From Elusimicrobia bacterium GWC2_64_44 (GTDB taxonomy: Bacteria > Elusimicrobiota > Elusimicrobia > Elusimicrobiales > UBA9959): a stretch of 64,000 bases of DNA. The stretch covers positions 74,944-138,943 of the forward strand of contig MGUG01000048.1 in NCBI GenBank assembly GCA_001799845.1, in the 5' to 3' direction. Positions 44,501 through 64,000 of this stretch are shown here, piece after piece. The notes beneath the pieces are model-generated. The model made no database searches. It was not told the origin of the DNA and saw only the letters and a program-made list of their open reading frames with translations. Within the stretch, counting starts at the first letter, position 1. Every line of letters begins with the position of its first letter. Made by a program: the position numbers and the translations under genes.

Positions 44501-44635
44501 AACTATATGATAGCAAAGCCCGGGGCCGGGGGGCCAGAACCCGCGGACGGCGGGCCGGGGCGGGGACTTAAGGCTTGCTGTCGGTGGCCCGGATATATCA
44601 AAATCTATACACCGACGGAAGACAGCGCGGGAACT

Positions 44636-49857: not shown

Positions 49858-50907
49858 ATGAAAAAGCCCAGAAAACCGTCGCAGGAATTGGCGCAGGCGC
49901 AGGTGCAGCGGCAGGACCTGCGACTCTTCGCCGTGCTGGCCTCTTCGGAGGAGGATTTCCTGCGCCAGTCGGCGGAGCTGGAAGCCGACCCGCTCTTCGC
50001 GCGGCTCTGCGCCCCCGGCCCGGACGGGAGCGCCCCGGTGCTGCGCCGGCGCCTGCCCGGAGCTTCCTACGCCTTCTCCCTGGCCTGCGGGGACGACGCC
50101 CTGGCCGCGGCCGCCGGCCCCGGCGGCACCGCCGGCGAGTGGCTGGCCGCCAGGCCGGAGATGCTGGCGCTCGCGCGCCGCGTCGGGCTGGAGAATTTCG
50201 AGAAATTTTTCCTGTCGGACTCCGCCTTCAGCCCCGCCGCAGCCGCGCGGGCCTGCGGCTGCACTCCAGCCGAGGCCGCCGCCCTTAAAACTTTCGCCGC
50301 CGCCTTCCTGCTCGCGCACGAGCATATCGCCCCGGCCGCGCTGCCCAGGCTTTACCTGCGCTGCGCCGCGTCCGTAGGCGCCGAAGGCGGGAAACTTTCC
50401 ATTGCGTACACGCACCCGTCCTACCTGCGCGGCGCCTGCACCGTGGACCACCGGGCCCTGGCCAGCCTGGTAAAGAGCGGCGGGCTCACCCCCGCCGACG
50501 CCGCGCGCGCCGCCGGGCTGGCCGCGCGCGCCCAGCGACTGGCCTGGCGCCGGGCCGGCTTTCACCGCGTGATCTTGGCGCTGGTAGAGGCGCAGTCGGG
50601 CTTCCTGCTGCGGCGCTCGGGACTGGCCCCGCTGACGCAGCGGGAGCTGGCCGCGCGCTCCGGCCTGGACCCCGCCACGGTCTCGCGCCTCATAGCCTCC
50701 AGGACCTTGCTCGCCCCGTGGGGAGACGAGATAAAGCTGAAAGACCTTTTTCTCGCTAAAAACGCGTTTATAATTGATAAAATAAAGGCCATACTGGGGG
50801 CTGCCGACCAACGCTTGACCGACACCGAACTGACCGCGGTCCTCAGAACTAAACACGGTATACGGGTATCACGCCGCAGCGTGAACCTGTACAGGTCAAA
50901 GTTATGA
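49858..50907 (+). CDS. rpoN: Compact sigma-54-like RNA polymerase sigma factor
   Basis: 349 aa. The C-terminal HTH (LTQRELAARSGLDPATVSRLIASRTL...WGDEIKLKDLF) and the RpoN-box-like GIRVSRRSVNLYRSKL match the sigma-54 DNA-binding end. The N-terminus (QELAQAQVQRQDLRLF...ELEADPLF) resembles region I. It is about 100 aa shorter than typical RpoN. Confidence 0.6.
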   Translation: MKKPRKPSQELAQAQVQRQDLRLFAVLASSEEDFLRQSAELEADPLFARLCAPGPDGSAPVLRRRLPGASYAFSLACGDDALAAAAGPGGTAGEWLAARPEMLALARRVGLENFEKFFLSDSAFSPAAAARACGCTPAEAAALKTFAAAFLLAHEHIAPAALPRLYLRCAASVGAEGGKLSIAYTHPSYLRGACTVDHRALASLVKSGGLTPADAARAAGLAARAQRLAWRRAGFHRVILALVEAQSGFLLRRSGLAPLTQRELAARSGLDPATVSRLIASRTLLAPWGDEIKLKDLFLAKNAFIIDKIKAILGAADQRLTDTELTAVLRTKHGIRVSRRSVNLYRSKL

Positions 50908-52016
50908 TGAGCAAAAAAATAGGCGCGGCCGCCAATCCCATCTACAAAAGCCTCTTCGACGCGGTCTTCTTCAAGGCGCAGGAACCCATGCTGGTGCTGG
51001 ACCGCGGGCTCGCCGTGCTGGTGGTGAACAACAGCGCGCTGAAGCTGCTGGGCTGGTCGGGGCAGGACATCAACGACAAGCCGGTCTCCGAGCTGGTGCT
51101 GGGCAAGGACCTGAAAGATTTCCTCGAACTCCTGGAGCTGGCCTCGCGCAACGGCGTGGTGCGCAACTACCGCTTCTATATGCTGACCGCCTCCAAGAGC
51201 ATAGTGCGCCTCTTTCTCACCGTGCAGGCGCTCAAGGACGAGGCCGGCGTGGTGAACGGCTACTGCCTGTCTTTCTCGCCGGTCTCGCCCGACGAATGGT
51301 CCGCGCTGAAGGACCCGCACGTGTTCAAGAACGCTGCGCGCAAGCTCAACCGTCTCACTTCCATGGGCCAGCTCACCGCCATGTTCGCGCACGACATCAA
51401 GAACCCGCTGCACGTGATCCTCTCCACGTCGGAGCTGCTCGGCGCGCTGGAGAACCCGCCCGAGGGCGTGAAGACCGGGGCCGAGCTCATCGAGCGCAAC
51501 GCCCGACGGGCCTCAAAGATAGTCAAAACGCTGCTGGATTTCTCCCGCAGCGGCATGTGCCGCCTGGAGCCCTACTCCCTGGAGACAGCCGCCGACAACG
51601 CGCTGGAGCTGATAGACAGCTCGCTCAAGACCGCCAAGGTGCGTGTAGAGAAAAAATTCGACCGCGCGCCCAAGGTGTTCCTGGACCCGCATTACCTGCA
51701 CAGCGTCATCTACAACCTCCTTAACAACGCGGCCCAGGCCCTGGATGGCGCCCCCGACGGGCGCATCTCCGTCACGTCGGGCTGGCTGGAGAAGGAGGGC
51801 GAGGTGTTCCTGACCATCGCCGACAACGGGCCCGGCTTCGAGTCCGCCATGGCCGACAATCTCTTCCAGCCTTTCTTCACCACCAAGGAGAACGGCACGG
51901 GCCTCGGCCTCTACCTGGCCCGCCAGATCATGGACGAGCACGGCGGCCGCATCATAGTGGCCTCCTCGCCCGAGGGCGGGGCCATGGTGAGCCTGCGCTT
52001 CAAGAAGATCGTTTAA
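50904..52016 (+). CDS. Cytoplasmic PAS-domain sensor histidine kinase
   Basis: 370 aa with no TM segment. It has a PAS-like N-terminus, H-box FAHDIKNPL, N-box NLLNNAAQA and G-boxes DNGPGF and GTGLGL. There is an ATGA overlap with the sigma-54-like gene. Confidence 0.85.
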   Translation: MMSKKIGAAANPIYKSLFDAVFFKAQEPMLVLDRGLAVLVVNNSALKLLGWSGQDINDKPVSELVLGKDLKDFLELLELASRNGVVRNYRFYMLTASKSIVRLFLTVQALKDEAGVVNGYCLSFSPVSPDEWSALKDPHVFKNAARKLNRLTSMGQLTAMFAHDIKNPLHVILSTSELLGALENPPEGVKTGAELIERNARRASKIVKTLLDFSRSGMCRLEPYSLETAADNALELIDSSLKTAKVRVEKKFDRAPKVFLDPHYLHSVIYNLLNNAAQALDGAPDGRISVTSGWLEKEGEVFLTIADNGPGFESAMADNLFQPFFTTKENGTGLGLYLARQIMDEHGGRIIVASSPEGGAMVSLRFKKIV

Positions 52017-53383
52017 TGGGCAATATCCTCATCGCCGAAGACGACGCCGACACGCGCTACGTGCTGAAGGCCGCGCTAGAGAGCGGCCGGCACGCCTGCG
52101 CGGCGGCCGCCTCCGGCGCCGAGGCCCTGGCGCTGGCCGAGGCGCTCACCTTCGACGCCGTGGTGCTGGATATGGTGCTGGGCGACGCCGACGGGCTGGA
52201 GATACTGAAAAAACTGAAGAGCGAGGATCCCGGCCTGCCCGTCGTCATCCTCACCGGGCACGCCAACGTGCAGACCGCCGTGAAGGCCATGAAGCTGGGC
52301 GCGCTGGATTACCTGATAAAGCCTTTCGGCAACGAGGAGCTGCTGCTGATCATGGAAAAGGCCGTGAAGGAGCGCCGCCTCAAGCGCGAGTTTGACGCCC
52401 TGCGCAGCCACGTTAAGCGCGCCCAGGGCGCCGAGCCGGTGTTCGGCCCCAGCAAAGAGATCAAAAATACCGCCGCGCTGGCCCGCCAGGTGGCAGCCAC
52501 CGACCTCACCGTCATCCTGTCCGGCCCGTCGGGCGCCGGCAAGGAAGTGTGGGCGCGCGAGATACACAGGCTTTCCTCCCGCGCCGGCAGCCCCTTCGTG
52601 GCGCTGGACTGCGGCGCGCTGCCCGAGAACCTCGTCGAGAGCGAGCTGTTCGGCTACGAGCGCGGCGCTTTTACCGGCGCGGACCGCCGCAAGCCCGGCC
52701 TGTTCGAGGCGGCCTACGGCGGCACCCTTTTTCTCGACGAGATAGCCAACCTGACTCCGGGCACGCAGGCCAAGCTCCTGCGCGTACTGGAAGAGCGCAG
52801 GATCCGCCACCTCGGCGGAAAAAAGGACATTCCCATCGACACGCGCGTGATAGTAGCCGCCAACCGGGACCTGCCAGCCTGCATCAAGGCGGAAGAGTTC
52901 CGCGAGGACCTCTATCACCGCCTCAACCAGTTCACCCTGCGCGTGCCTTCGCTGGCCGAGCGCAAAGAGGACATCCCCGCGCTGGCGGCCTTCTTCCTGC
53001 GCGAGGCCGAGAAGCTGGTGAATAAAAAGATAGACTCCATTTCCGACTCCGCCATGGCCGCGCTGGCGGCCTACGCCTGGCCGGGCAACGTGCGCGAGCT
53101 CAAGAACGTCATTATCCGCGCCGCCCTGCTGAGCGGGGGGGAAATACTGCCGGTACACCTGGGCCTGGGCGGCGAACCCGCGTGCCCGGAGACGCCGCGC
53201 GCCGCAGCGCCCGAAAGTTTCGATCTGAAAGAAAACCTCCGTCTCGCCCGCTCGGAAACCGAACGCCGACTGATACGTGCTGCGCTGGCCGAAACCGGCG
53301 GAAATAAGCTGAAAGCTGCCAAGCTTCTGTCCATCGACCGCAAAGCACTTTACACAAAGATCAAAGAGTACTCACTAGAGTAG
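52016..53383 (+). CDS. Sigma-54-dependent response regulator (NtrC family enhancer-binding protein)
   Basis: 455 aa. It has a REC domain (VVLDMVLGDADG), AAA+ Walker A GPSGAGKE, the GAFTGA motif (ERGAFTGA) and a C-terminal Fis-type HTH (GNKLKAAKLLSIDRKALYTKIKEY). There is a 1-nt overlap with the kinase stop. Confidence 0.9.
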   Translation: MGNILIAEDDADTRYVLKAALESGRHACAAAASGAEALALAEALTFDAVVLDMVLGDADGLEILKKLKSEDPGLPVVILTGHANVQTAVKAMKLGALDYLIKPFGNEELLLIMEKAVKERRLKREFDALRSHVKRAQGAEPVFGPSKEIKNTAALARQVAATDLTVILSGPSGAGKEVWAREIHRLSSRAGSPFVALDCGALPENLVESELFGYERGAFTGADRRKPGLFEAAYGGTLFLDEIANLTPGTQAKLLRVLEERRIRHLGGKKDIPIDTRVIVAANRDLPACIKAEEFREDLYHRLNQFTLRVPSLAERKEDIPALAAFFLREAEKLVNKKIDSISDSAMAALAAYAWPGNVRELKNVIIRAALLSGGEILPVHLGLGGEPACPETPRAAAPESFDLKENLRLARSETERRLIRAALAETGGNKLKAAKLLSIDRKALYTKIKEYSLE

Positions 53384-53394
53384 TGGGGAAACTT

Positions 53395-53448
53395 TTCCAC
53401 AGTTATGCTGTGGAATATATTCCACAGTGTGGATAATATTCCACAGTG
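53395..53448 (+). promoter_or_regulatory. Cluster of TTCCACAG repeats/palindromes (putative enhancer, UAS)
   Basis: The cluster has TTCCACAG-N5-CTGTGGAA (53395-53415, perfect), TTCCACAG-TGTGGATA (53420-53435) and a third TTCCACAG (53439-53446). The 13-mer ATATTCCACAGTG occurs twice, 19 nt apart. The cluster lies about 190-240 nt upstream of the -24/-12 element. Confidence 0.6.
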
Positions 53449-53635
53449 ACTTTTAACAACTATTTCACTTTTTCGCCGCATTTCGGCACTGTCCCATCCT
53501 GTATAATTAAAACATGCAAAAGGCAATTGCGCCTATGAAAACGGCAGCGCCGCAGTCGGGCTTGCCCGCTCTCTTTTGGGGGATAATCCTTAAAACTATC
53601 AGCAAATATCTACCCATTTAGGGGTATAATGCTTT

Positions 53636-53651
53636 TGGCAAAGTCGTTGCT
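53636..53651 (+). promoter_or_regulatory. Sigma-54 (-24/-12) promoter
   Basis: In TGGCAAAGTCGTTGCT, the GG and GC are separated by exactly 10 nt as in the consensus TGGCAC-N5-TTGCW. It lies about 60 nt upstream of the ATG at 53711, which has a GGAGG SD. Confidence 0.7.
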
Positions 53652-53710
53652 ATAGTTAAAAAACGAGGGGATAACTATTCCAGATTTGGTTCCAGACAGT
53701 CGGAGGCACT

Positions 53711-56700
53711 ATGAAAACGTTCAAAGCCCGCATAACTAAAATCCTGATGGCGCTGCTGCTGCTGCCGGCAATAGCCGCCGCGGCCCCGAGCCAGATCAAC
53801 TACCAGGGCCGCCTGGTAGACGCAACCGGCAATCCGCTGAGCGGGAGCTACACGCTGACTTTCCGGATCTACGACGCCGCCTCGGCCGGAACCACGCTCT
53901 GGACCGAACCGCAGACGCTCACCGTGGATAACGGCATCTTCAGCGCCAAACTTGGCTCTGTCGCCAACCTGCCGCCCTCCGTGTTCTCCGCTGACACCCG
54001 CTACCTCGGCGTGACCGTCGGAGCCGACGCCGAGATGACCCCGCGCGTGCAGCTGCTCTCCGTCCCCTACGCCATCTACGCCGCCAGCGCCGCCAGCGTG
54101 GGCACTCCCGGCCAGGGCGTCATTATTTCCACCTTCGTGCAGGTCAACGACTATATCAGCGCCACACGGTTCATCGGCGACGGCTCGGGCCTTACCGGCA
54201 TCAGCGCCGGCGGGAGCTCCATAGTGCTCCCCATCGTTTCCACCCACATCGCCGACGGCAGCATTGCCAACGCCGACCTTGCTGGCTCCATCGCCTACAA
54301 CAAGCTCACCCTGACCGGCGCGATACTGAACGCCGACCTGGCTGGCTCCATCGCCTACAACAAGCTTGCCCTGACCGGCGCAATACTGAACGCCGACCTG
54401 GCCGGTTCCATCGCCGACAGCAAGCTGAACACCATCACGACTGCGGGTAAAGTTGACGGCGCGGCCGTGACCGGCCTGGCCAGCCTGCCCGCCGGCGCGG
54501 GCCTTATCCCCGCCGCCAATCTGCCCGCTACCGTGTCGTACCTGGGCAGCGACATAAGCAGCGCCGAGATCGCCGACGGCACCATCGCCGACGGCGACCT
54601 GGCCGCCAGCGGTTTCAATCTTTCGAAGTTCACCGTCGGCCAGATCAATACCGACCTCGTGGCGGGCACCCTTGTGTCCACCCACATCGCCGACGGCAGC
54701 ATAGCCAACGCCGACCTCGCGGGTTCCATAGCTTATAACAAGCTGGCTCTGACCGGAGCCGTCCTCAACGCCGACCTCGCCGGCTCCATCGCCTACAACA
54801 AGCTCGCCCTGACCGGCGCGATACTGAACGCCGACCTGGCTGGCTCCATAGCCGACAGCAAACTGAGCGCCATCACTACGGCCGGCAAAGTGGACGGCTC
54901 TGCCGTGACCGGCCTGGCCAACCTGCCCGCCGGCGCGGGCCTCATCCCCGCGGCCAATCTGCCCGCCACCGTGTCGTACCTGGGCAGCGACATCAGCAGC
55001 GCGGAGATCGCCGACGGCACCATCGCCAACGGCGACCTGGCCGCTTCCGGTTTCGACCTGGCCAAGTTCACCGTGGGACAGATCAGTACCGACCTTATAC
55101 CCGCGACTATAGTGTCTACTCATATAGCGGACGGCAGCATCGCCAACGCGGACCTGGCGGGCTCTATCGCTTACAACAAGCTGGCGCTTACCGGCGCCAT
55201 CCTGGACGCCGACCTGGCGGGCTCCATCGCCTACAGCAAGCTGAGCCTGACCGGCGCCATCCTGAACGCCGACCTGGCCGGTTCTATCGCCGACAGCAAG
55301 CTGAGCGCCATCACCACGGCCGGCAAAGTGGACGGTTCTGCCGTGACCGGCCTGGCCAACCTGCCCGCCGGCGCGGGCCTCATCCCCGCCGCCAACCTGC
55401 CCGCCACTGTGTCCTACCTGGGCAGCGACATAACTAATGCCGAGGTCGCGGCGGCCGCCGGCATCGTGTATTCCAAACTCGACCTTTCCAACAGCATCGT
55501 GGCCGGCGACCTGACCGCAGGCGCTGTCACCAAGGCCAAGCTCGCCGTGGAAGGCTGCGCTGACGGCAAGATCCTCAAGCTTGCCGGCGGCGCGTGGACC
55601 TGCGACGACGACGCCGGCGCCGGCGGTTCTGTCGCCGGTACCGGTGCCGCCGGCCGCGTGGCCTTCTGGACCGGGGCCGCCGCCATCGGTTCCAACGCGA
55701 ACATTTTCTGGGACGACACTAATTCTTACCTGGGTATAAATGACACGACTCCCGGCCAGGCCCTCGACGTGACCGGCAACATCAACGTGACCGGCAACGT
55801 AGTCGCCGCCAACGTGAGCGGCAACGGCTCCGGGCTGACGGCGCTTAATGCTGCAAATCTCGGTTCTGGCACCGTGGACGATGCGCGCCTCTCCGCCAAC
55901 GTGACGCTGCTGGGTGCTACGATAGACGCGGGCGAGCTGCCTGCCGACGGTTACGCTGCGACGTACGTGAACGCGGCCGAGGGTGATTCCGTAACTACGG
56001 GCATGATCACCAACGGCACTATCCTCAACGCCGACCTGTCGGCGAGCGGCTTCGACCTGGGCAAGTTCAGTGCGGGCACGCTGGGCACCGAGTTCATCGG
56101 CGGCACCATAGTTTCTACGCACATAGCCGCTAACGCCGCTATCCCTGACACCAAGCTGGCTACGATAGCTACCGCGGGCAAGGTATCCGACACCGCGCTG
56201 TCCGCCAACGTGACGCTGCTGGGCGCGACTATCGACGCGGGCGAGCTGCCTGCCGACGGCTACGCTGCGACTTACGTGAACGCGGCCGAGGCTGATTCCG
56301 TCACCTCTGCGATGATAACGAACGGAGAGATTGTGGACGCAGATATCGCTGCCGGTGCGGCTATAGTGCTGTCTAAATTGGCGACTACCGGTTCGCTTGG
56401 AGCGGCTGTTACGCATAAGGCCGGCGCTGGGACTGGCGAGGCTGCTCCGATCGGAACTCTCAGTGTTAATACTGGTACGCAGGCTACACTTGATACCGCA
56501 GGAGAAGAAGTTCTTATGAGCTTTTCCGTCCCGGCGGATTCCTTTAACGGGAATGGTAAAGCCGTAAAAATCAAGGCGTGGGGCACGACAGCCGCTAATG
56601 CGAACAGTAAGACCATAAAGATACGCTTCGGCGGTCTTGCCGGAGACGTCGTTCTGACCACTACTACATTCGCTAATGCTCAAGCCTGGGACCTTGAAGC

Positions 56701-56896
56701 GACGGTAGTACGTACCGGTGTCGGCACGCAGGAGTCAATCGCAAGGGGCTATGTCGGCGAATTCGTAGTGCCGGTAGCTAAAAACACTCCCGCTCAGGAC
56801 GAAACTGGCGCAGTTTCAGTCGCAGTTACCGGCGATACAGCAACTGCCGCAGGAGATGTAGTGGCTGAAGGTCTTATTGTTGAGTTCGTGAACTGA
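53711..56896 (+). CDS. Secreted repeat-rich fibre/adhesin-like protein (tail-fibre-like repeats)
   Basis: 1061 aa with a signal peptide (MKTFKARITKILMALLLLPAIAAAAP). The N-terminal module is INYQGRLVDATGNPLSGSYTLTFRIYD...LWTE. It has 20-aa repeats (ADLAGSIAYNKLALTGAILN) nested in 146-aa repeats. The C-terminal domain of about 200 aa is distinct and has lower GC. Confidence 0.8.
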   Translation: MKTFKARITKILMALLLLPAIAAAAPSQINYQGRLVDATGNPLSGSYTLTFRIYDAASAGTTLWTEPQTLTVDNGIFSAKLGSVANLPPSVFSADTRYLGVTVGADAEMTPRVQLLSVPYAIYAASAASVGTPGQGVIISTFVQVNDYISATRFIGDGSGLTGISAGGSSIVLPIVSTHIADGSIANADLAGSIAYNKLTLTGAILNADLAGSIAYNKLALTGAILNADLAGSIADSKLNTITTAGKVDGAAVTGLASLPAGAGLIPAANLPATVSYLGSDISSAEIADGTIADGDLAASGFNLSKFTVGQINTDLVAGTLVSTHIADGSIANADLAGSIAYNKLALTGAVLNADLAGSIAYNKLALTGAILNADLAGSIADSKLSAITTAGKVDGSAVTGLANLPAGAGLIPAANLPATVSYLGSDISSAEIADGTIANGDLAASGFDLAKFTVGQISTDLIPATIVSTHIADGSIANADLAGSIAYNKLALTGAILDADLAGSIAYSKLSLTGAILNADLAGSIADSKLSAITTAGKVDGSAVTGLANLPAGAGLIPAANLPATVSYLGSDITNAEVAAAAGIVYSKLDLSNSIVAGDLTAGAVTKAKLAVEGCADGKILKLAGGAWTCDDDAGAGGSVAGTGAAGRVAFWTGAAAIGSNANIFWDDTNSYLGINDTTPGQALDVTGNINVTGNVVAANVSGNGSGLTALNAANLGSGTVDDARLSANVTLLGATIDAGELPADGYAATYVNAAEGDSVTTGMITNGTILNADLSASGFDLGKFSAGTLGTEFIGGTIVSTHIAANAAIPDTKLATIATAGKVSDTALSANVTLLGATIDAGELPADGYAATYVNAAEADSVTSAMITNGEIVDADIAAGAAIVLSKLATTGSLGAAVTHKAGAGTGEAAPIGTLSVNTGTQATLDTAGEEVLMSFSVPADSFNGNGKAVKIKAWGTTAANANSKTIKIRFGGLAGDVVLTTTTFANAQAWDLEATVVRTGVGTQESIARGYVGEFVVPVAKNTPAQDETGAVSVAVTGDTATAAGDVVAEGLIVEFVN
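54236..55435 (+). repeat. In-frame tandem repeat: 438-bp units (2 full plus 1 partial), each containing three 60-bp sub-repeats
   Basis: Unit starts (VSTHIADGSIANADLAGS) are at 54236, 54674 and 55112, exactly 438 nt apart. The 60-nt sub-repeats start at 54272, 54332 and 54392. A separate 309-bp repeat pair starts at 55892 and 56201 (SANVTLLGATIDAGELPADGYAATYVNAAE). Confidence 0.9.
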
Positions 56897-56997
56897 CATC
56901 AATAGCAGGGAAGCTGTTCTCGGGCCGGTAAGTATCATACGGCCCGAGTAAGGTTGGAATGGCAGAGTCACTGTAAATATCGGTCGGATGGCTTTTT

Positions 56998-58542
56998 ATG
57001 AGATATAAATACGCGGGGTTTGCGGCGGCGGCGTTGTGCTTTGGCGCGCTGTGCTCGTACGCGGCCAATAGCCAGGAGACGCGGGCCCTTACCACGGGGT
57101 TCTCCGTCTCCAATAGCGGCGGCAAGACGCTGGAGTCCACCGTCGGAGAGATCTCCGGCTCCACCATGGCCGCTTCGGGCAAGGGCCTGCGCAGCGGCCA
57201 TTCCGGCACCAGCCACAGCCCCGGCGTGGTCTACGACCTCACCGCTTCCACCAACGCCTCCGGCCAGGCCCTCTTCCAGTGGACCAGCGTTGGCGCTGAC
57301 GGCCTTTCCGGGCAGGCGGCCTACGTAGAGGTCAAGATCGCAACTTATCCCATCACCTACGCCAATTATTCCACTATTAATTCTTCCTTTACACTGGCGT
57401 CGCTGGCACCGGGCAGCGTAGAACAGGAACTTTACGGCGGGCTCACGGCCGGCAAGACCTATTACACCGCTGTGCGCGTGCGCGACGGCGCCAACATGTA
57501 CGGCCGCCTCTCGGCCAACGCCACCTTCGGCACCGCCCCCGTCAGGCCCCGCGCGCCCGTAGTGTCCGGCGTGGTGGCCGGCGGCAACTTCACCATTTCC
57601 TGGGGCGCCGTCACCTCCAACGTGGCAGGCAGCACCATCACCGTGCAGAACTACGAGGTCTACTACAGCACCGCGCTCAGCGGCGCTATCTCCGGCCCCG
57701 TTACGCTTCCCAACTCCACGCTGTCGTACAGCGTGGCCACCAGCCCGCTGCGGTGGTACTTCCTCAAGGCCCTCGACGGCGACGGCTTCCGCAGCGACGC
57801 TTCCGTCTGGCTGAACAACTCCGACGAGGTCTCCCGCACCGTGGCCGACGACTCCCGCGCCGTGGTGGACATGAGCCCCTACGTCGAGGACTTCCTCGCC
57901 ACCTCCGGCCTGCAGCCCGTCCTGCAGCATGAGCCCCAGTTCGAATCCGGCTCCACGGTGGTGTCCTACAGGTTCTACTTCCGCGACGCGGCCAACAACG
58001 AGGTAACGCAGCACCTGGCCGAGGACGTCACGCTGATCCTGCCGCTCTCCCGCACCGGAGCGTTCACCGTCAGCGCCGTCTCGCCCGCAGTGAATTACAG
58101 CGTCTACGACTACTCCGCCTACTTCTACAACGGCGTGGAGGACGTCAAGATAGGCGGCACCGTGAACCCGTCCGACGGCTCGGTGTCCATCCTGACGCGG
58201 CGGCCCGGCCTCTACAAGGTCAAGCAGGTCATCCGCGCGCAGAGCTTCAGCGTCATCCAGACCGAGCCGCGCAAGGTCTTCACGCCCAACGGCGACGGCG
58301 TCTGGGACCAGTTCAACATCGTCTACGACAACCCGGAGGGCCTGGCCATCACCGACGCCAAGGTCTACGACCTGTCAGGCGCCGAGATCGCCAGCCTGCG
58401 GTCGGGCACCTACGGCGCGCAGGCCTCGCTGGCCTGGGACGGCCGCAGGTCCAACGGCGACAAGGCCGTGTCCGGTATCTACATCTACCAGTTCAAGGCC
58501 GGCAGCAAGTTCTATAACGGCACCATGGTGGTGGCGCGGTAA
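56998..58542 (+). CDS. Secreted protein with FN3-like modules and a C-terminal FlgD-Ig-like/CHU_C-like beta-sandwich domain
   Basis: 514 aa with a signal peptide (MRYKYAGFAAAALCFGALCSYAA). FN3-like segments are present (FTISWGAVTS...YEVYYS). The C-terminus is KVFTPNGDGVWDQFNIVYD...KVYDLSGAEIASL...WDGRRSNGDKAVSGIYIYQFKAG. Confidence 0.7.
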   Translation: MRYKYAGFAAAALCFGALCSYAANSQETRALTTGFSVSNSGGKTLESTVGEISGSTMAASGKGLRSGHSGTSHSPGVVYDLTASTNASGQALFQWTSVGADGLSGQAAYVEVKIATYPITYANYSTINSSFTLASLAPGSVEQELYGGLTAGKTYYTAVRVRDGANMYGRLSANATFGTAPVRPRAPVVSGVVAGGNFTISWGAVTSNVAGSTITVQNYEVYYSTALSGAISGPVTLPNSTLSYSVATSPLRWYFLKALDGDGFRSDASVWLNNSDEVSRTVADDSRAVVDMSPYVEDFLATSGLQPVLQHEPQFESGSTVVSYRFYFRDAANNEVTQHLAEDVTLILPLSRTGAFTVSAVSPAVNYSVYDYSAYFYNGVEDVKIGGTVNPSDGSVSILTRRPGLYKVKQVIRAQSFSVIQTEPRKVFTPNGDGVWDQFNIVYDNPEGLAITDAKVYDLSGAEIASLRSGTYGAQASLAWDGRRSNGDKAVSGIYIYQFKAGSKFYNGTMVVAR

Positions 58543-58629
58543 ACTAAGGCCCGGGCGAGTTTAGCGGGCGAGGGTGGCGGCTGGCGGCGGGGGAACCCGC
58601 CGCACGGCCGTTACATTCAGGTAATATTT

Positions 58630-60081
58630 ATGAAACAGTTAAAATGTAGAATTGTAACTGTGGCGAAAGCATTTATTCTATTTTTGGCCTTTGCCACGGT
58701 CACTATGAACGCCGAAGCTTCCTTTTCTGCCGACTCAGCCTGCGGGGCGCGCGCCTCCGCGATGGCCGGCGCTTTTACCGCGGTGCCCGGCGGCGCCGAG
58801 GCCGCCTGCTCCAATCCCGCCACGCTGACCGAGCTCGGCTCGCCCGAGCTCACCGCGGTCTACGGCCGCCTCTACTCCGGCCTCTCCGACGATTCCTCTA
58901 TCGGCCAGGGCTACTTCGGCTTCGCCGCGCCGATCAAGAAATACCTGCAGGGCAACGCCGCCTTCTCCTGGAGCGACACCCGCCTGAGCGAGGCCTACTC
59001 CGAGAGCGCCTACTCCCTCAGCTACGCCACTTCCGTCTACCGCGGCATCGGCGCGGGCCTCACGCTCAAGTACCTGCGCCGCGCCTATACCTCCGACGCC
59101 TATACCGCGCTGGACCCGGTTTTCAACAGCGGCTATTCCAAAGGCGCGCTCGGCGCCGACCTGGGCTTCTTCTACCGGCCCCGGACCAACTACGCTTTCG
59201 GCCTTTCGTTCCGCAACCTCAACAAGCCCGACCTGGGCCTGGCCTCCTCCGACCCGCTGCCCCTGGAGACCCGCGCGGGCTTCTCCTACCTGACCCGCTC
59301 CACCCTGCTCGACGTGGACGCGGCGTTCGCGGGCCCCGACTACAATCTTTCCGCCGGCGTAGAGCACCTGTTCCAGCGCCGCTTCCTGCTGCGCATGGGC
59401 CTGGCCACCGGCAACGATTCCCGCCGCAGCGTGAACCTGGGCTTCGGCAGCCGCTTCGGGCTGGCCTCCTTCGACTACGCCTTCAGCCTTCCCATCAGCG
59501 GCATAGCCGGCACCATCGGTTCCCACCGCCTGGCTTTCTCTTTCAAGTTCGGCGCCGACGCGGCCCTGGCCGAAGACCTGGCCGCCGCGGCCGACCTGAA
59601 GCGGGCGCAGGAGCGCGCCGTGCTGCAGGAGGAGAAGATACGCGTGCTGCAGGAGCGGCTGGACGCCGTAGTGCGCCAGAGCGTGGGCCTCGCGCAGCAG
59701 CCCGCTGCACAGCCCGCTGCCGTTCCCGCGCAGGCGGCGCAGCCCGCGCAGCAGCCCGTGGTCATAATACAGCCTTCCCAGTCGGACGCGAAGGCGCAGG
59801 CGGAAATAAGCCGCCAGATAGAGAATTTGAAACTGGAGCTGGAGAAGTCCCGCGCCGAGATGGAGACGCTGAAGGCCAGGCCGGCCGCGGCTCAGCAGCC
59901 CAAGCCCGCCCAGCAGCCCGCGCGCCGCACCTACGTGGTTAAAGACGGCGACACGCTGGGAAGCATCGCGGCCTCCGTCTACGGCGACGCCGACCGCTGG
60001 CCGGAGATCTACCGCGCCAACAGCGCCTCGGTGGGCCGCGGGGGCGAAGTTAAACCGGGGCAGGTGCTGTCGCTGCCTTAA
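58630..60081 (+). CDS. Outer-membrane beta-barrel (PorV/FadL-like N-terminal motif) fused to coiled coil, Pro/Gln/Ala linker and C-terminal LysM
   Basis: 483 aa with a signal peptide. The motif GARASAMAGAFTAVPGGAEAACSNPATL and strand-like segments extend to about aa 305 (HRLAFSFKFG). These are followed by a coiled coil (LKRAQERAVLQEEKIRVLQERL; IENLKLELEKSRAEMETLK). The LysM is YVVKDGDTLGSIAASVYGDADRWPEIYRAN...PGQVLSLP. Confidence 0.7.
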   Translation: MKQLKCRIVTVAKAFILFLAFATVTMNAEASFSADSACGARASAMAGAFTAVPGGAEAACSNPATLTELGSPELTAVYGRLYSGLSDDSSIGQGYFGFAAPIKKYLQGNAAFSWSDTRLSEAYSESAYSLSYATSVYRGIGAGLTLKYLRRAYTSDAYTALDPVFNSGYSKGALGADLGFFYRPRTNYAFGLSFRNLNKPDLGLASSDPLPLETRAGFSYLTRSTLLDVDAAFAGPDYNLSAGVEHLFQRRFLLRMGLATGNDSRRSVNLGFGSRFGLASFDYAFSLPISGIAGTIGSHRLAFSFKFGADAALAEDLAAAADLKRAQERAVLQEEKIRVLQERLDAVVRQSVGLAQQPAAQPAAVPAQAAQPAQQPVVIIQPSQSDAKAQAEISRQIENLKLELEKSRAEMETLKARPAAAQQPKPAQQPARRTYVVKDGDTLGSIAASVYGDADRWPEIYRANSASVGRGGEVKPGQVLSLP

Positions 60082-60112
60082 CCCGGCGCGGAAGTTTTAG
60101 AGAGATACTAAT

Positions 60113-63100
60113 ATGAACGAGAATTTCGACGAATCCTCCCTCAACGAGGCCGCCATTAACGACGTGGAAACGGCCCGCCTGGCCCTGCGCTGGTCGCTGG
60201 ACAAGATCCGCGCCCTGCACGAGGAAGACCTCAAGACCCGCCAGAACCTGCAGGAAAAGAACAGCCAGGTGGCTTTCCTCGAGAACCAGCTGAAGTCCAA
60301 GAACACCGAGATAGACCGCTCCACCCGCGTGCACGAGGAGGAGATGAAGTCCCGCCAGTCGTCGATGGAATACCAGTTCCGCGCGCGCCTGGAGCGCCTG
60401 ACCGAGCGCGAGAAAGAGCTGGAAGACAAGATCTCCAAGAACGAGGAGGTGCTCAAGCAGAAGGAGCTCCGCCTCGACTCCGATTACCAGAAGAAGGCGG
60501 AAGACCTCCGCGGCCGCTGGGCCAGCGTGGAGGGGGAACTGTGGCAGCTGCGCCAGGAGCAGCTGGCCAAGCAGCAGGAGTTCGAGCGCGTCTACGGCGC
60601 CCGCCTGGAAGAAGAGAAGAAAAGATTTTCAGAGGAAGCCGCCCAGCAGAAGTCCATGCTGGAGGAGACCTACCGCAACCGCGTGGAGGAGCTCGAGAAG
60701 CGCGAGCGCTCCGTCAGCGACGAGCTCAAGAAGCAGGAGGCCGTGCTGAAGTGGGCCAAGGACAGCTGGCAGAAGGACACCGAGGAGCGCGAGCGCGTCC
60801 TGAAGCAGAAAGACCTGGAGATAGACAAAAAGATCCTGGAGAAGAACCAGGAGATCGACGATTACAAGGTCAAACTTTCGCTGCTCGAGAAGCAGCTCAA
60901 GGACCTGCCCGAGGCGGTCAGGCGCCGCGACGAGGACCTGAACCGCTACAAGGACGCGATCGGCAGCCTGGAAAGCGTCATCCGCACCTTGGAGAACGAG
61001 AAGAAGAACCAGCAGGCCGACTACGAGGGCCGCCTCTCCAAGGCGGGCGAGGCGGTAGAGCACGAACGCTCCCGCTTCCGCGAGATGGAGGCCGAGATCC
61101 CGCGGCGTCTGAAGATCGCCGTAGAGCACGAGCGCAACCGTTTTTCCGAGAAGCTGCAGGAGATCGAGCGCGGCTACCGCGACGACCTGGGCAAGCGCCA
61201 GGACGAGGTGGACTATCTGCAGCGCAACCTGCACACTTTCGAGGAGACCATAAAGACCCTGCAGGCCGAGCGCGAGACCATGGCGCACAAGGCCGACCAG
61301 CTGCAGACGCAGTATAACGTGCGGCAGGAGGAATTCTCCTTCCGCGAGAAGCAGCTGCAGTCCGAGTACGACGTGCGCCTCAAGGTGGAGATGGAGAAGC
61401 ACACCGCCGCGCTGCGCTCCGAGATAGAGACCGCCGGCCGCATCTACGAGGACAGCCTCCGCCTGAAGGTGGAGGAGATCTCCCACCTGCGCCGCGACAT
61501 CGACGAGATTTCCAAGGAAAAGACCGCTGCCAAGGACCAGCAGGCCGAGCTGCGCCGCCAGCTCGAGGCCGCCGCCGAGCGCGGCGTCTCCGAGCAGGAC
61601 GCGCTGCGGGCCAGGCTGAAAGCCGAGAGCGAGCAGCGGCTGGCCGAGGCCGCCGCGCACGCCGAGCGGACACGCGCCGCCGAGAAGCAGAAATTCGCCG
61701 ACGAGCTCGACGGCCGCGCCGGCGAGTTCAAGGCCGAGGTCGCCCGCAAGGACGACGAGATCATGGCCCTGCGCCTGTCGGTCCAGAAGGCCGGCGAGGA
61801 GCAGCGCATGCTGCGCCAGAAGGCCGGCGAAGAGCTGAAGGCCGCCGTGCAGGAAGAAAAAGCCCGCGCCGCCGCCGAGCTGGAGGACCGGGCCTCGCGC
61901 CTGGCCGCCACCATCAAGCTGCGCGACGACAAGATCTCCGAGCTCACCTCCGCCCTCGAGGCGGCCAGGATAGAGCGCGAGGAGCTGATGCTGCTGGAGC
62001 GCGAGCGCCTGCAGCGCATCTACGCCGAGAAAGAAAAAGCTATAGACGAGGAGCTGGCCGCCCGCGACGCCGAACTGCTGCGGGCCCGCGAGGCCGCAGC
62101 CCGCGCCGGCGCCGAGAAGGACGCCGCGGCGCACGCCTTCGCCGCGGACCGCCGCAACCTGGAAGAAAAGCTTACCGCCCTCACCGTGCGGCTGACCGAA
62201 GAGGAAGCCGCGGCCGGGGTGAAGCTGGACGCCGCGCTGCGCCGCGAAGCGGACCGCTACGCCGAGATCATAGACCGCAAGAACAAGGAGCTGGAGGCGG
62301 CGGCGCAGGTGCGCCAGTCGCAGGAAGACGCCTACCGCAAAACGCTGGCCGATTTCCGCTCCAACTTGTCCGAAGCGCTTGGCAAGTTCGAAGCGCTGAA
62401 GGCCACCGCCGAAGAGCGGCAGGCGCAGCTGATGGCCCTGCAGGTAGAACTGGCCCAGGAGAAGAAGCAGGCCGGCGAGCTGGGGTCTTCGCTCTCCGCG
62501 CGCCTCTCCGAGAAGGAAAAACTTTACCGCGACCTCCGCCTGCAGCACGACGACCTCAAGGAGGCCTTCGAAGAGGAAGTGAAGACCGCCGAGCGCCGCT
62601 ACAACGACGCCCTGCTGAAGCTGCGAGCGGCCGAGGAGCAGAAGGCCGCCCGCGACAAGCAGATAGAGGCCTTCAAGCGCGACGGCGACCTGCTGCGCGC
62701 CGAGAACCAGCGCCGCGAGCACGAGGCGGCCGAGCTGAAAGCCTCAGTTTCCAAGCAGGTGGAGACCGAGCGCCGCGAGATGCACGCCTCCGGCGAGCGC
62801 CGCGCGCACGAGTACGCCCAGAAGGAAAAGTCCCTGCTCTCCGAGATCTCCGCGCTGCGCGACATCGCCAACGCCAAGGACGTCATGCTGGAGAAGCAGA
62901 AGGTCCAGTTCGAGGAAGCCCGCAACAGCGCCGAGCGCCTGAAGGCCGCCCTGGAAGAAGAGCGGGCCCGCCAGACCGAGGCTGAGGCAGACCGCTCCCT
63001 CCGGTACGAGGAATACGACGAACGCCTGGCCGCCACGGCCGAGCGTGAGAAAGCGCTGTCCGGCGAGATCCTGGCGCTGAAGAAAACGCTGTCGGATATA

Positions 63101-63763
63101 ACGGCGGAGGCCATGTCGGGCAAGTCCAACTCCGAGGTTCAGCGCGTCACCCTGGAGCGCTTGGCCGCTGCTTTCGAGGTAGAAAAGGCCAAGCGCGCCG
63201 AAGCCGAGGCTGCGGCCCTCTCCGCCAGCTCCGCGCTGCGCGAGAAAGCCTCCGAGGCCGACACCCGTAAGGCCGAAACAGAATCTCTGATCGGCGCCAT
63301 CGGGCGCCTGAAGACCGCCTTTACCGAGGAACGCAAGAAGCGCGCCGACGCCGAGCTGCAGGCAGAAACTGCCCAGGCCGCGCTGCGCGAGAAAGGCGAC
63401 CTGCTGGAGAACCGCAGGTCCGAGTCCGAAGGGCTCCGCACGTCAGCGGAACGCCTGAAGGCGAACCTCGACGAGGAGAAGCGTCGCCGCGCGGAAGCCG
63501 AACTGGCCGCCACCACCGCCCGTTCCGAACTCCACGAAAAAGCCGAAGACCTCAACGGCCGCCGCGCCGACATAGACGCCCTGCGGCACGCCATCGAGCG
63601 GCTCAAGCACGCCTTCGAAGAGGAGCGCGCCAAGCGCGTCGAGAGCGAGCTGCTGGCGCAGACCGCCCATTCCGCCCTGCGCGAGAAACAGGAAGAGTTC
63701 CTGCGCACCCAGAAACTTGTAGAACAACTTAAGGATAAGCTCCGGCTATGGAAGAGCAAGTAA
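60113..63763 (+). CDS. Giant coiled-coil protein (1216 aa), no signal peptide
   Basis: Heptad-like, E/K/R/L/A-rich sequence throughout, with no NTPase motifs seen. The C-terminal 49-aa tandem repeats follow the pattern RLKxAFxEE+x+RxEAELxAxTAxSALREK. Confidence 0.75.
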   Translation: MNENFDESSLNEAAINDVETARLALRWSLDKIRALHEEDLKTRQNLQEKNSQVAFLENQLKSKNTEIDRSTRVHEEEMKSRQSSMEYQFRARLERLTEREKELEDKISKNEEVLKQKELRLDSDYQKKAEDLRGRWASVEGELWQLRQEQLAKQQEFERVYGARLEEEKKRFSEEAAQQKSMLEETYRNRVEELEKRERSVSDELKKQEAVLKWAKDSWQKDTEERERVLKQKDLEIDKKILEKNQEIDDYKVKLSLLEKQLKDLPEAVRRRDEDLNRYKDAIGSLESVIRTLENEKKNQQADYEGRLSKAGEAVEHERSRFREMEAEIPRRLKIAVEHERNRFSEKLQEIERGYRDDLGKRQDEVDYLQRNLHTFEETIKTLQAERETMAHKADQLQTQYNVRQEEFSFREKQLQSEYDVRLKVEMEKHTAALRSEIETAGRIYEDSLRLKVEEISHLRRDIDEISKEKTAAKDQQAELRRQLEAAAERGVSEQDALRARLKAESEQRLAEAAAHAERTRAAEKQKFADELDGRAGEFKAEVARKDDEIMALRLSVQKAGEEQRMLRQKAGEELKAAVQEEKARAAAELEDRASRLAATIKLRDDKISELTSALEAARIEREELMLLERERLQRIYAEKEKAIDEELAARDAELLRAREAAARAGAEKDAAAHAFAADRRNLEEKLTALTVRLTEEEAAAGVKLDAALRREADRYAEIIDRKNKELEAAAQVRQSQEDAYRKTLADFRSNLSEALGKFEALKATAEERQAQLMALQVELAQEKKQAGELGSSLSARLSEKEKLYRDLRLQHDDLKEAFEEEVKTAERRYNDALLKLRAAEEQKAARDKQIEAFKRDGDLLRAENQRREHEAAELKASVSKQVETERREMHASGERRAHEYAQKEKSLLSEISALRDIANAKDVMLEKQKVQFEEARNSAERLKAALEEERARQTEAEADRSLRYEEYDERLAATAEREKALSGEILALKKTLSDITAEAMSGKSNSEVQRVTLERLAAAFEVEKAKRAEAEAAALSASSALREKASEADTRKAETESLIGAIGRLKTAFTEERKKRADAELQAETAQAALREKGDLLENRRSESEGLRTSAERLKANLDEEKRRRAEAELAATTARSELHEKAEDLNGRRADIDALRHAIERLKHAFEEERAKRVESELLAQTAHSALREKQEEFLRTQKLVEQLKDKLRLWKSK
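63158..63745 (+). repeat. In-frame 147-bp (49-aa) tandem repeats x4 in the coiled-coil gene
   Basis: The repeat-initial Arg codons of RL(A/K)... are at 63158, 63305, 63452 and 63599, exactly 147 nt apart. A more divergent copy starts at 62936. Confidence 0.85.
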
Positions 63764-64000
63764 GCCACATAAGCGACCTGGAAGGTCTTAACTCCGAACT
63801 GGATGGTTTCCTCGCCGACCTGCACGGCCGCGAGGAGACCCTGGCCGCGCGCGTCAAGACGCTCGAAGAAGAGCTGAAGGGCGCCCGCGCCTCGGCCGGC
63901 GCGGAGCTGGGCCGCCTGGCGCAGAAGGAAGCCGCCCTCTCTTCCGCCATGGAAGACCTGCGCACCACGCTGGCCCGCGAGAGCTCCGCGGCGGTGTCGC
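63748..64000 (+). CDS. Second coiled-coil protein, N-terminal part (runs off the window end)
   Basis: Absent from the track because it has no stop in the window. The ATG at 63748 overlaps the end of the previous gene by 16 nt. The translation MEEQVSHISDLEGLNSELDGFLADLHGREETLAARVKTLEEELKGARASAGAELGRLAQKEAALSSAMEDL... is coiled-coil-like. Confidence 0.55.
   Translation, partial: MEEQVSHISDLEGLNSELDGFLADLHGREETLAARVKTLEEELKGARASAGAELGRLAQKEAALSSAMEDLRTTLARESSAAVS

Follow-up and report, generated by a model that had tools for sequence, protein, structure and literature searches.

A conserved sigma-54-controlled locus of Elusimicrobiales and its possible role as a regulated, cell-wall-anchored surface adhesin module

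Which system, if a single one, is encoded behind the sigma-54 promoter found in a 64-kb stretch (64,000 nt, hereafter the window) of an Elusimicrobiales metagenome-assembled genome (MAG; ~65% GC)? The promoter is followed by genes for a secreted fibre (g1), a secreted protein ending in a C-terminal sorting domain (CTD; g2), an outer-membrane barrel with a LysM domain (g3), a coiled-coil protein (g4) and a kinase (g5), and, as read in a related locus, for a response regulator (g6); related loci in other genomes are labelled L001, L003, L004, etc. A preliminary description, made from the sequence of the window alone, saw in the first five products parts of an envelope-spanning or surface appendage system, none of them with an assignable function. 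Our results indicate that this is a real, conserved and regulated envelope module, which recombines a cargo and an anchor of the kind known from type IX secretion systems (T9SS), a fibre of the mosaic adhesive trimer (MAT) type, and a switch made of sigma-54 and an enhancer-binding protein with two unusual signalling proteins. Its role must be stated more cautiously: with a probability of roughly 0.45, the block from position 49858 to the end of the window, together with two genes beyond, would constitute an Elusimicrobiales module for a regulated, cell-wall-anchored surface adhesin.

Functions can be proposed for g2 and g3, contrary to the preliminary description, as they correspond to a T9SS-type CTD protein and a PorV/PorP-family barrel in the gene order of a type B cargo and its shuttle (PMC12618676, PMC9143113). 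The g2 product had been described as a 514-aa secreted FN3 protein with a sorting-domain-like C-terminus, which we confirm, the C-terminus being probably of the T9SS type (type B-like). The protein has a signal peptide (MRYKYAGFAAAALCFGALCSYA/ANS; a hydrophobic helix at residues 6-28 of the model, judged by eye) and an N-terminal segment (residues 27-78) ahead of FN3 domains in tandem; another two beta domains lie before the CTD (residues 418-514). The best Foldseek matches of its AlphaFold2 (AF2) model, with a predicted local distance difference test score (pLDDT) of 70, are tandem FN3 domains. Over the CTD, the Pfam families CHU_C (29.1, cut-off 27) and FlgD_ig (27.4, cut-off 27) both pass; the type B model TIGR04131 reaches 21-25 bits, under its cut-off of 35, and the NCBIfam type A threshold is also missed. 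The CTD sequence retrieves weak matches only from the PDB, to FlgD and to the PorU CTD (E 0.3-0.9). The segment at residues 27-78 (57076-57231) is predicted to be disordered (pLDDT ~30) and contains residues that are invariant (E27, T28, E46, S47, G50, G67, S72, H73, and G76) in 38 orthologues, among them the longer forms of 720 aa; the segment may serve as a peptide for docking or threading. The g3 gene lies directly downstream of g2 (87 nt), an adjacency that is kept in all main-clade loci and in most deep loci.

In the g3 protein, a signal peptide precedes the barrel (residues 73-306); residues 309-421 comprise two long helices separated by a P/Q/A linker, and a LysM domain (Pfam, 25.5 bits) occupies residues 433-483. 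The AF2 model (pLDDT 83.7) shows a FadL-like fold with 14 strands, the two long helices and the LysM, and thus bears out the earlier view of an outer-membrane barrel with a coiled coil and LysM. Its best Foldseek matches are PorV chains of the F. johnsoniae T9SS translocon (8gl6_F and 6h3i_F; template modelling scores of 0.60-0.64, E 4e-12 to 7e-12), with FadL and TodX ranking behind them. Against PorV_fam (NF033709; cut-off 90), the window protein reaches 55.8 bits, and against the PorP family (TIGR03519; cut-off 90.55) 21 bits. Among 50 relatives of g3, all match PorV_fam (PorV/PorQ; best E 3.1e-30), while 32 match PorP/SprF, 31 PorV, 21 PorV2, and 14 PorQ. Homology to the PorV/PorP barrels is clear, even though the window protein itself stays below the curated thresholds. 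We rejected the PGAP name "conjugal transfer protein TraF" (Pfam TraF_2 at 20 bits, sub-threshold), as no conjugation genes are found nearby and PorV is the best structural and hidden Markov model match. In public records, several g3 orthologues are listed under TraF or as "nucleoid-associated protein YgaU"; both names seem to mislead, having been transferred from weak TraF_2 matches and from LysM matches.

The pairing of cargo and barrel extends to distant Elusimicrobiota loci, in which a PorV-family barrel nearly always adjoins a CTD-motif protein, with cargo of 134 to 2995 aa and, in some loci, several pairs. The cargo tails share the motif P.K.FTPNGDG.ND ... WDG ... SG.YIYQ ... GT.VVAK; the T9SS type A model matches 12 of 13 barrel-adjacent tails and the type B model 8 of 13 (best E 1.1e-10), and matches to the PorU and PorZ models are also found. 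Such tail matches, the matches of the barrels to the PorV, PorQ, PorP, and PorV2 models with PorV as the best structural match, a gene order as in F. johnsoniae (PMC12618676) and the existing PGAP names of the orthologues are also what an ordinary T9SS cargo operon would present. In that case, a full T9SS (SprA/Sov, PorK/L/M/N, and PorU) would be encoded elsewhere in the genome, with g2 as a type B substrate, g3 as a PorP/SprF-like shuttle and the rest as lineage-specific decoration. Nevertheless, we consider this explanation unlikely. The T9SS has been described as exclusive to Bacteroidota or the FCB (Fibrobacteres, Chlorobi and Bacteroidetes) group (PMC12618676, PMC12398890, PMC5445135), and our full-text literature searches retrieved no report of a T9SS in Elusimicrobia, the few papers containing both terms drawing no connection between them. 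Moreover, the Pfam tables list no core family, either in the flanks (≤10 kb) of eight loci or among the scanned window genes, and the window proteins remain under the curated cut-offs.

That each cargo has one barrel although the cargoes differ widely in size, also where a locus holds several pairs, and that no other outer-membrane component is found in any locus could instead be read as a self-contained two-partner export. The barrel, assisted by the β-barrel assembly machinery, would carry or thread the adjacent CTD protein over the outer membrane without a translocon, the kinase and the regulator would gate the process, and the invariant disordered N-terminal segment of g2 could thread or dock. 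However, known PorV/PorP-family barrels bind CTDs by surface loops and conduct no cargo (PMC10994853, PMC9143113), a 14-strand barrel is narrow for FN3-rich cargo, and the cluster contains no energy source, so that we regard this route as distinctly improbable.

The conservation of the neighbourhood, a check proposed in the preliminary description, could be evaluated in related genomes. Named homologues of g2, g3, and g6 all come from Elusimicrobia/Elusimicrobiales MAGs, and a g3 profile searched against one genome per GTDB species retrieved 38 loci, all from Elusimicrobiota except for one short contig binned as a spirochaete. Using tblastn of the cluster proteins against these 38 loci and five further loci fetched by exact-protein look-up, we found the cluster to be syntenic in ~30 related species, with g3 identities of 38-95% (tblastn). 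The common order is sigma-54-like gene, PAS kinase, NtrC-type activator, fibre, CTD protein, barrel-LysM, coiled coil, coiled-coil histidine kinase, response regulator and a convergent type IV pilin-like gene, the whole block being flanked by a class II ribonucleotide reductase (RNR) gene upstream and ftsQ/ftsA downstream. The coordinates and lengths of the five co-directional open reading frames (ORFs) first described were confirmed, the fifth running off the window, but not the extent of the cluster, since a sixth gene, the response regulator, follows, and the three genes upstream of the promoter share the conserved block. All the cluster ORFs have conserved homologues, and g1-g5 are gene-like in their GC content at third (GC3, 0.76-0.90) versus second codon positions (GC2, 0.37-0.53).

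Two deep relatives are particularly informative about the composition of this block. The loci L004 and L005 lie in unrelated surroundings, yet in both of them a CTD protein and a barrel with LysM stand together with a coiled-coil kinase of the cytoplasm and a regulator composed of a receiver (REC) domain, a transmembrane helix and a periplasmic domain, without the fibre, g4, or the sigma-54 regulators. The LysM-extended barrels of L004, L005, and the main clade co-occur with the coiled-coil kinase and the regulator carrying a REC domain, a membrane helix and a propeller-like domain, and short barrels without kinase and regulator are present in most distant loci examined. This co-occurrence is our main reason for thinking that the periplasmic domain of g6 may act on the g3 stalk. 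The g4 gene, the MAT-type fibre and the sigma-54 regulatory genes were added only in the clade of the window. In L004 (L004:1941-17052), two cargo-barrel pairs, a 2687-aa CTD protein with a LysM-bearing barrel and a 465-aa CTD protein with a 428-aa barrel, flank one kinase-regulator pair, and one relay may serve more than one cargo-barrel pair there. The type IV pilin-like gene (N_methyl, ComP_DUS/Pilin; L001:12371-12820 on the minus strand, with equivalents in >20 loci) adjoins the end of the cluster, in convergent orientation, in every main-clade locus, with identities of 65-79%, above those of the cluster proteins at equal divergence. It may be unrelated or a functional partner; an interplay between fibres and pili was also raised as a possibility in the study of the MAT fibres (PMC10769870).

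The fibre itself can likewise be related to a known family. The earlier identification of g1 as a secreted repeat fibre of 1061 aa was confirmed with respect to the signal peptide and the repeat shaft; the statement that it had no assignable function seems too strong for its base, which appears to share the N-terminal domain of the Bdellovibrio MAT fibres. A beta domain of the MAT type (residues ~26-130) follows the signal peptide and precedes the shaft, made of 146-aa tandem repeats with nested 60-nt sub-repeats, and a variable tip (~900-1061). This N-domain aligns to positions 3-77 of the 162 of the NCBIfam model NF053851 (Bdello_MAT_N) with E 5.9e-11 and 42.4 bits, below the cut-off of 60. 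A HMMER search with residues 1-170 against 1.84 billion cluster representatives retrieved 48,314 relatives at E ≤ 0.001, and 43 of the 45 sampled match the MAT N-domain model (best E 3.5e-25). The tip is exchanged between close relatives: g2-g4 of L001 are 90-94% identical to those of the window, whereas the last ~170 residues of the fibres are unrelated, with nothing in common but the junction motif IT....DADI...AAI..SKLATTG.LGA. The fibre of L003 has another shaft and tip. Such a tip swap between near-identical loci is the expectation for a ligand-binding fibre.

No Pfam, PHROG or PDB match and no S74 protease domain were detected in g1. A phage tail fibre was considered and rejected on the lack of PHROG and PDB matches; two scans of IMG/VR for the MAT-type N-domain also confirmed none of 38 candidates, which were chance matches only, although this is a weak negative because exact words were required. 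An extra 303-aa gene in L003 proved spurious, as it results from a stretch of N that interrupts the fibre gene. In addition, numerous contigs start inside or just after the fibre gene (L001, L002, L007-L010, L012, L016, L019, L022-L025, L028, and L030-L032), which suggests that the near-identical shaft repeats break short-read assemblies; the locus is consequently usually truncated in public MAGs.

The genes g4 to g6 encode the cytoplasmic and inner-membrane parts of the module. As previously described, g4 is a cytoplasmic coiled-coil protein of 1216 aa, without a membrane helix; it contains only 2 prolines, and 68% of its residues are E, K, R, Q, A, or L. It is syntenic at 44-90% identity and has no family or PDB match and no relatives outside the clade. 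An SMC assignment was rejected (20 bits against a cut-off of 567, i.e., coiled-coil noise), as was a paralogy of g4 and g5, for which BLASTP shows compositional similarity only. Residues ~1012-1210 of g4 (63146-63742) are composed of ~49-aa repeat units (..ERLK.AF.EE+.+R..AE..A..A..AL.EK..), and the number of repeats seems to vary, since the L001 copy, at 90% identity, is 49 residues shorter than that of the window. The next product had been taken for a further coiled-coil protein; it is indeed a coiled coil but not a plain one, since g5 is a histidine kinase. Its full length is taken from the neighbour L001 (95% identical), whose orthologue (L001:7506-11084, 1192 aa; 81 of the 84 residues in the window are identical) has HisKA and HATPase_c placed after ~970 aa of cytoplasmic coiled coil. 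The HATPase_c domain reaches 74 bits, and HisKA 25.7 bits in L001 (cut-off 26.9) and 36-42 bits in L004 and L005.

The g6 protein combines a receiver domain, a Pro/Ala-rich linker, one membrane helix and a periplasmic domain of ~220 aa with five W..G..LW..D repeats, which is a probable beta-propeller. The receiver residues D8/D9, D52, T80, and K102 are invariant in 16 regulators and, judging from the catalytic residues present, g5 and g6 would form a two-component phosphotransfer pair. In a limited literature search, we came across no account of a receiver domain whose output domain is periplasmic. Together, these observations agree with the preliminary picture of an envelope-spanning set, with products predicted at the cell surface, outer membrane, peptidoglycan and cytoplasm, to which g6 adds a link between the inner membrane and the periplasm. 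Giant cytoplasmic coiled coils tied to two-component signalling, alongside a combination of fibre, CTD protein and PorP-like barrel that recalls sprB-sprF, might also evoke gliding or another surface motility, where a SprB-like adhesin would be moved on a cytoplasmic coiled-coil track and g4 and g5 would resemble AglZ or FrzS. This idea appears very improbable to us, since no GldLM/PorLM, ExbBD/TolQR, or MotAB homologue is found in any locus and the barrel would be pinned by its LysM, whereas anchoring to the wall by PorP-PorE complexes of the T9SS has been proposed to mark non-mobile adhesins (PMC9143113).

Three features of a sigma-54 switch are present together: a GG-N10-GC element, an AAA+ activator with GAFTGA and palindromes upstream. 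The promoter (TGGCAAAGTCGTTGCT), already recognised as a -24/-12 element in the preliminary description, is the sole match to TGGCA-N6-TTGCW in the 64 kb, where 0.21 are expected. L003, L015, L018, and L020 have exactly this sequence and L034 the nearly identical TGGCAACTTTGTTGCT, although the surrounding DNA has diverged, so the placement of these genes behind a sigma-54 promoter is supported by phylogenetic conservation. The activator (455 aa) displays a REC domain with D51, a Walker A motif, an AAA+ domain with GAFTGA and a Fis-type helix-turn-helix (HTH), with Sigma54_activat at 214 bits. Directly after its stop codon begin the palindromes TGTGGA-N6-TCCACA, whose three matches in the window all fall at 53384-53445 (0.02 expected), ~200-250 bp from the promoter; triple TGTrGA-N6-TCyACA palindromes occupy the equivalent place in five relatives. 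A tRNA-Ile(TAT) called by ARAGORN at 53368-53454 has no Rfam report, overlaps the activator stop codon and all three palindromes, and almost certainly represents a false call produced by the inverted repeats of these sites. Between the palindromes and the promoter, an A/T-rich element (AACAACTATTT ... TATAAT) is conserved in the window, L003, L015, L018, and L020, while the neighbouring bases differ; it may be a bending site of the IHF type or a sigma-70 -10 box for basal transcription.

Two further genes of the switch precede that of the activator. The 370-aa kinase has PAS, HisKA, and HATPase domains by Pfam and no membrane helix, which makes it cytoplasmic; its relatives are syntenic and 54-82% identical, and it is presumed to be the partner of the NtrC-type activator. 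The 349-aa sigma-54-like protein matches Pfam Sigma54_DBD (51.9 bits), its residues 228-348 align to Aquifex RpoN (5ui5_I, E 1.2e-8), and it carries an HTH and an RpoN box, with an N-terminus that resembles region I by eye. No core-binding domain was detected, and TIGR02395 reaches 61.7 bits against a cut-off of 277. The motifs ELEADPLF and VSRRSVNLYR are conserved in an alignment of five orthologues, and the gene is syntenic in L003, L015, L018, L020, and L034, always as the first of the block. Two roles are conceivable for the protein, that of a dedicated sigma factor and that of a regulator which binds promoters but not RNA polymerase.

The gaps of 101, 87, and 31 nt and the subsequent 16-nt overlap (g4/g5) of the preliminary description were confirmed, as was its 9-bp hairpin without a T tract after g1. 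Our plus-strand terminator scan agrees with it that the gaps contain no credible terminator, and scans inside the block recognised neither a promoter nor a terminator; a search for another sigma-54 promoter ahead of g2 gave none. Hairpins of differing sequence occur at the same position after g1 in L001, L009, L014, L018, and L020, and such a hairpin probably stabilises or attenuates the transcript, leaving the fibre in excess over g2-g6. The ribosome-binding region of g2 (56975-57003, with equivalents in 12 relatives) reads GCGGGATGGCTTTTTATGAAATAT in most relatives and GGTCGGATGGCTTTTTATGAGATAT in the window, with a nucleotide conservation far above that of the remainder of the spacer; it may be a translational control element.

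The hairpin could also mark the end of a sigma-54 regulon consisting of the fibre alone, with g2-g3 as a separate surface pair, g4-g6 as an unrelated signalling operon, and an adjacency due to common descent. The collinearity of the housekeeping flanks would fit this explanation, as would the deep relatives L004 and L005, which lack the fibre, g4, and the sigma-54 regulators, and the absence of the kinase and regulator beside most distant barrel-CTD pairs. Nevertheless, the genes run in one direction with short gaps, down to the overlap of g4 with g5 and the 7 nt between g5 and g6 (read in L001), and no internal promoter or terminator was recognised. In addition, the kinase-regulator pair stays with the LysM-bearing barrel and the CTD protein in the unrelated contexts of L004 and L005, and the periplasmic output of the regulator is sensible only with an envelope partner. 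An assortment of independent genes is accordingly rather unlikely.

For the preferred reading, a wall-anchored adhesin under regulation, the genes present, the identities of their domains, their conservation, the promoter with its activator sites and the exchange of tips are established, whereas every contact between the proteins, their passage over the outer membrane, the way in which the signal runs and the function in adhesion are inferred. The proposed scheme is as follows. The cytoplasmic PAS kinase would phosphorylate the NtrC-type activator, which would bind the three palindromes just past its own stop codon and open the sigma-54 promoter at 53636, possibly through the sigma-54-like protein of the block. 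The g2 protein would be exported by Sec and held at the cell surface via its CTD by the g3 barrel, as PorP/SprF hold type B CTD proteins, and the stalk and LysM of g3 would fix the complex to peptidoglycan, g3 thereby doing in one polypeptide what PorE does for PorP. A complex pinned in this way would be static, which fits the absence of motor genes from the loci. The fibre g1 would be the variable ligand-binding element, probably docking via its base on the g2/g3 platform. On the cytoplasmic side, g5 probably pairs with the coiled-coil g4, as suggested by the 16-nt overlap of their genes, and would phosphorylate the receiver of g6, whose single membrane helix would carry the signal to the periplasmic propeller-like domain near the g3 stalk. 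Such a relay would provide inside-out control of adhesin retention or display, with a logic like that of LapD. By analogy with PorA-PorY (PMC12152298), the reverse direction, with envelope occupancy modulating the relay, is also possible.

Several observations weigh against this reading. The g2 and g3 proteins score below the NCBIfam cut-offs for T9SS families, and the periplasmic fold of g6 has weak propeller-type matches only. The RNR and ftsQ/ftsA flanks are also collinear in close relatives, so that the synteny partly reflects vertical inheritance, and the conserved hairpin after g1, together with spacers of 87-101 nt, leaves room for a separate transcription of g2-g6. Furthermore, the MAT-type N-domain is present in >48,000 protein clusters, most of them probably without such a barrel, and g1 may therefore anchor independently. 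A broader claim would be that the locus represents a minimal CTD system independent of the T9SS, in which each barrel receives and holds its own cargo, is anchored to the wall by its stalk and LysM and is gated by the coiled-coil kinase via a regulator with periplasmic output, the platform serving as the receptor for MAT-type fibre bases; we put this forward with considerable doubt.

The positions of the features are compiled in Table 1. Further upstream, between the thymidylate kinase and ribonucleotide reductase genes, an ORF of 829 aa (44507-46996, plus strand) is gene-like in GC3 (0.83) and unusually high in GC2 (0.57). At E ≤ 1e-5, no Pfam family matches it, and it did not group with any ORF of the other fetched loci, few of which reach that far upstream; it may be a lineage-specific gene or no gene at all.

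Table 1. Genes and regulatory elements of the locus (window positions unless a locus label is given).
Feature	Position	Strand	Remarks
Sigma-54-like gene	49858..50907	+	349 aa; first gene of the block
PAS-HisKA-HATPase histidine kinase	50904..52016	+	370 aa; Pfam
NtrC-type sigma-54 activator	52016..53383	+	455 aa; Pfam Sigma54_activat, Response_reg, HTH_8
Three tandem palindromes (putative activator sites)	53384-53401, 53409-53426, 53428-53445	.	Pattern count and relatives
A/T-rich element	53455..53507	+	Conserved across relatives
Sigma-54 -24/-12 promoter TGGCAAAGTCGTTGCT	53636..53651	+	GG-N10-GC
g1, secreted fibre	53711..56896	+	1061 aa
g1 shaft tandem repeats	54231..55433	+	438-nt (146-aa) units, 2.7 copies
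GC-rich hairpin	56919..56948	+	9-bp stem, 12-nt loop, no T tract
g2, secreted CTD protein	56998..58542	+	514 aa
g3, outer-membrane barrel with LysM	58630..60081	+	483 aa
g4, cytoplasmic coiled coil	60113..63763	+	1216 aa
g5, histidine kinase, first 84 codons	63748..64000	+	Continues past the window end
g6, response regulator (outside the window)	L001:11092-12309	+	Co-directional, after g5

Compared with known systems, the regulatory part of the locus is that of NtrC-family/sigma-54 units, with REC, AAA+ with GAFTGA, Fis-type HTH, upstream palindromes and a GG-N10-GC promoter. In contrast to the usual units, it is preceded by its own compact sigma-54-like gene, in which no core-binding domain was detected. 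The fibre is most comparable to the non-S74 class of the MAT fibres of Bdellovibrio bacteriovorus (PMC10769870), with which it shares a signal peptide, a long repetitive shaft, a tip that differs between otherwise near-identical loci and the lack of an S74 protease domain, and apparently also the conserved beta-rich N-domain of ~110-130 aa after the signal peptide. Unlike in these fibres, the N-domain of g1 is sub-threshold, its shaft and tip have no detectable PDB or Pfam relatives, and it is encoded singly, in a sigma-54 operon beside a barrel-CTD pair. The invariant N-domain of the MAT fibres was considered as the probable cell-proximal anchor, with a binding partner that remained unidentified (PMC10769870); a MAT-type fibre encoded beside a defined outer-membrane platform thus offers a concrete candidate for the partner of the fibre base.

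The relay resembles LapD/LapG/LapA (PMC3032553) in its logic only, namely a cytoplasmic signal transmitted through a bitopic inner-membrane protein to a periplasmic output near an adhesin-holding barrel. The proteins are non-homologous: the input would be receiver phosphorylation instead of cyclic di-GMP, a propeller-like domain stands in place of the LapD output domain, and neither a LapG-type protease nor a type I secretion system is found here. Similarly, a dedicated two-component pair coupled to a CTD surface protein, a coupling that is putative in our case, is known from PorX/PorY-PorA of P. gingivalis, where the CTD of PorA doubles as a periplasmic signal (PMC12152298, PMC7712824). However, PorY is a membrane sensor and PorX is cytoplasmic, whereas the locations are reversed in our locus, with the kinase in the cytoplasm and a regulator that crosses the membrane, and neither a PglZ domain nor an extracytoplasmic function (ECF) sigma factor is present. 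If the scheme is correct, a receiver-helix-propeller protein fed by a soluble, mostly coiled-coil kinase of ~1200 aa would represent a phosphorelay output into the periplasm, an arrangement of which we found no description.

The statement that the locus cannot be matched to a described machine was too strong, as its closest counterpart is the PorE-PorP-PG1035 cell-wall-anchoring complex of the T9SS. There are clear differences: the locus belongs to Elusimicrobiota, a phylum with no described T9SS, its window proteins fall under the curated thresholds, and no SprA or PorKLMN genes lie nearby (flanks of ≤10 kb and the 64-kb window). Moreover, the module for peptidoglycan binding is a LysM fused to the barrel via a helical stalk and not a separate OmpA_C lipoprotein, and the probable propeller is carried by an inner-membrane response regulator. 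In the known complex, a type B CTD protein is anchored by PorP, for which PorE, itself equipped with a beta-propeller, provides the tie to peptidoglycan (PMC9143113), and a cargo gene followed by its own barrel gene is the arrangement of type B CTD proteins and PorP/SprF (PMC12618676). The locus shares with this complex, as with SprB-SprF, a cargo with a predicted Sec signal and a probable C-terminal beta-sandwich sorting domain (TPNGDG.ND ... WDG ... G.YIY ... VVAK) and, directly downstream, one 14-strand PorV/PorP-family barrel per cargo; as in PorE-PorP-PG1035, the barrel would be tied to peptidoglycan, with a periplasmic beta-propeller in the assembly, as predicted here from the genes. The occurrence of the one-barrel-per-cargo rule in another phylum would suggest either that parts of the T9SS are more widespread than thought or that the cargo-anchor pair is an older, separable module.

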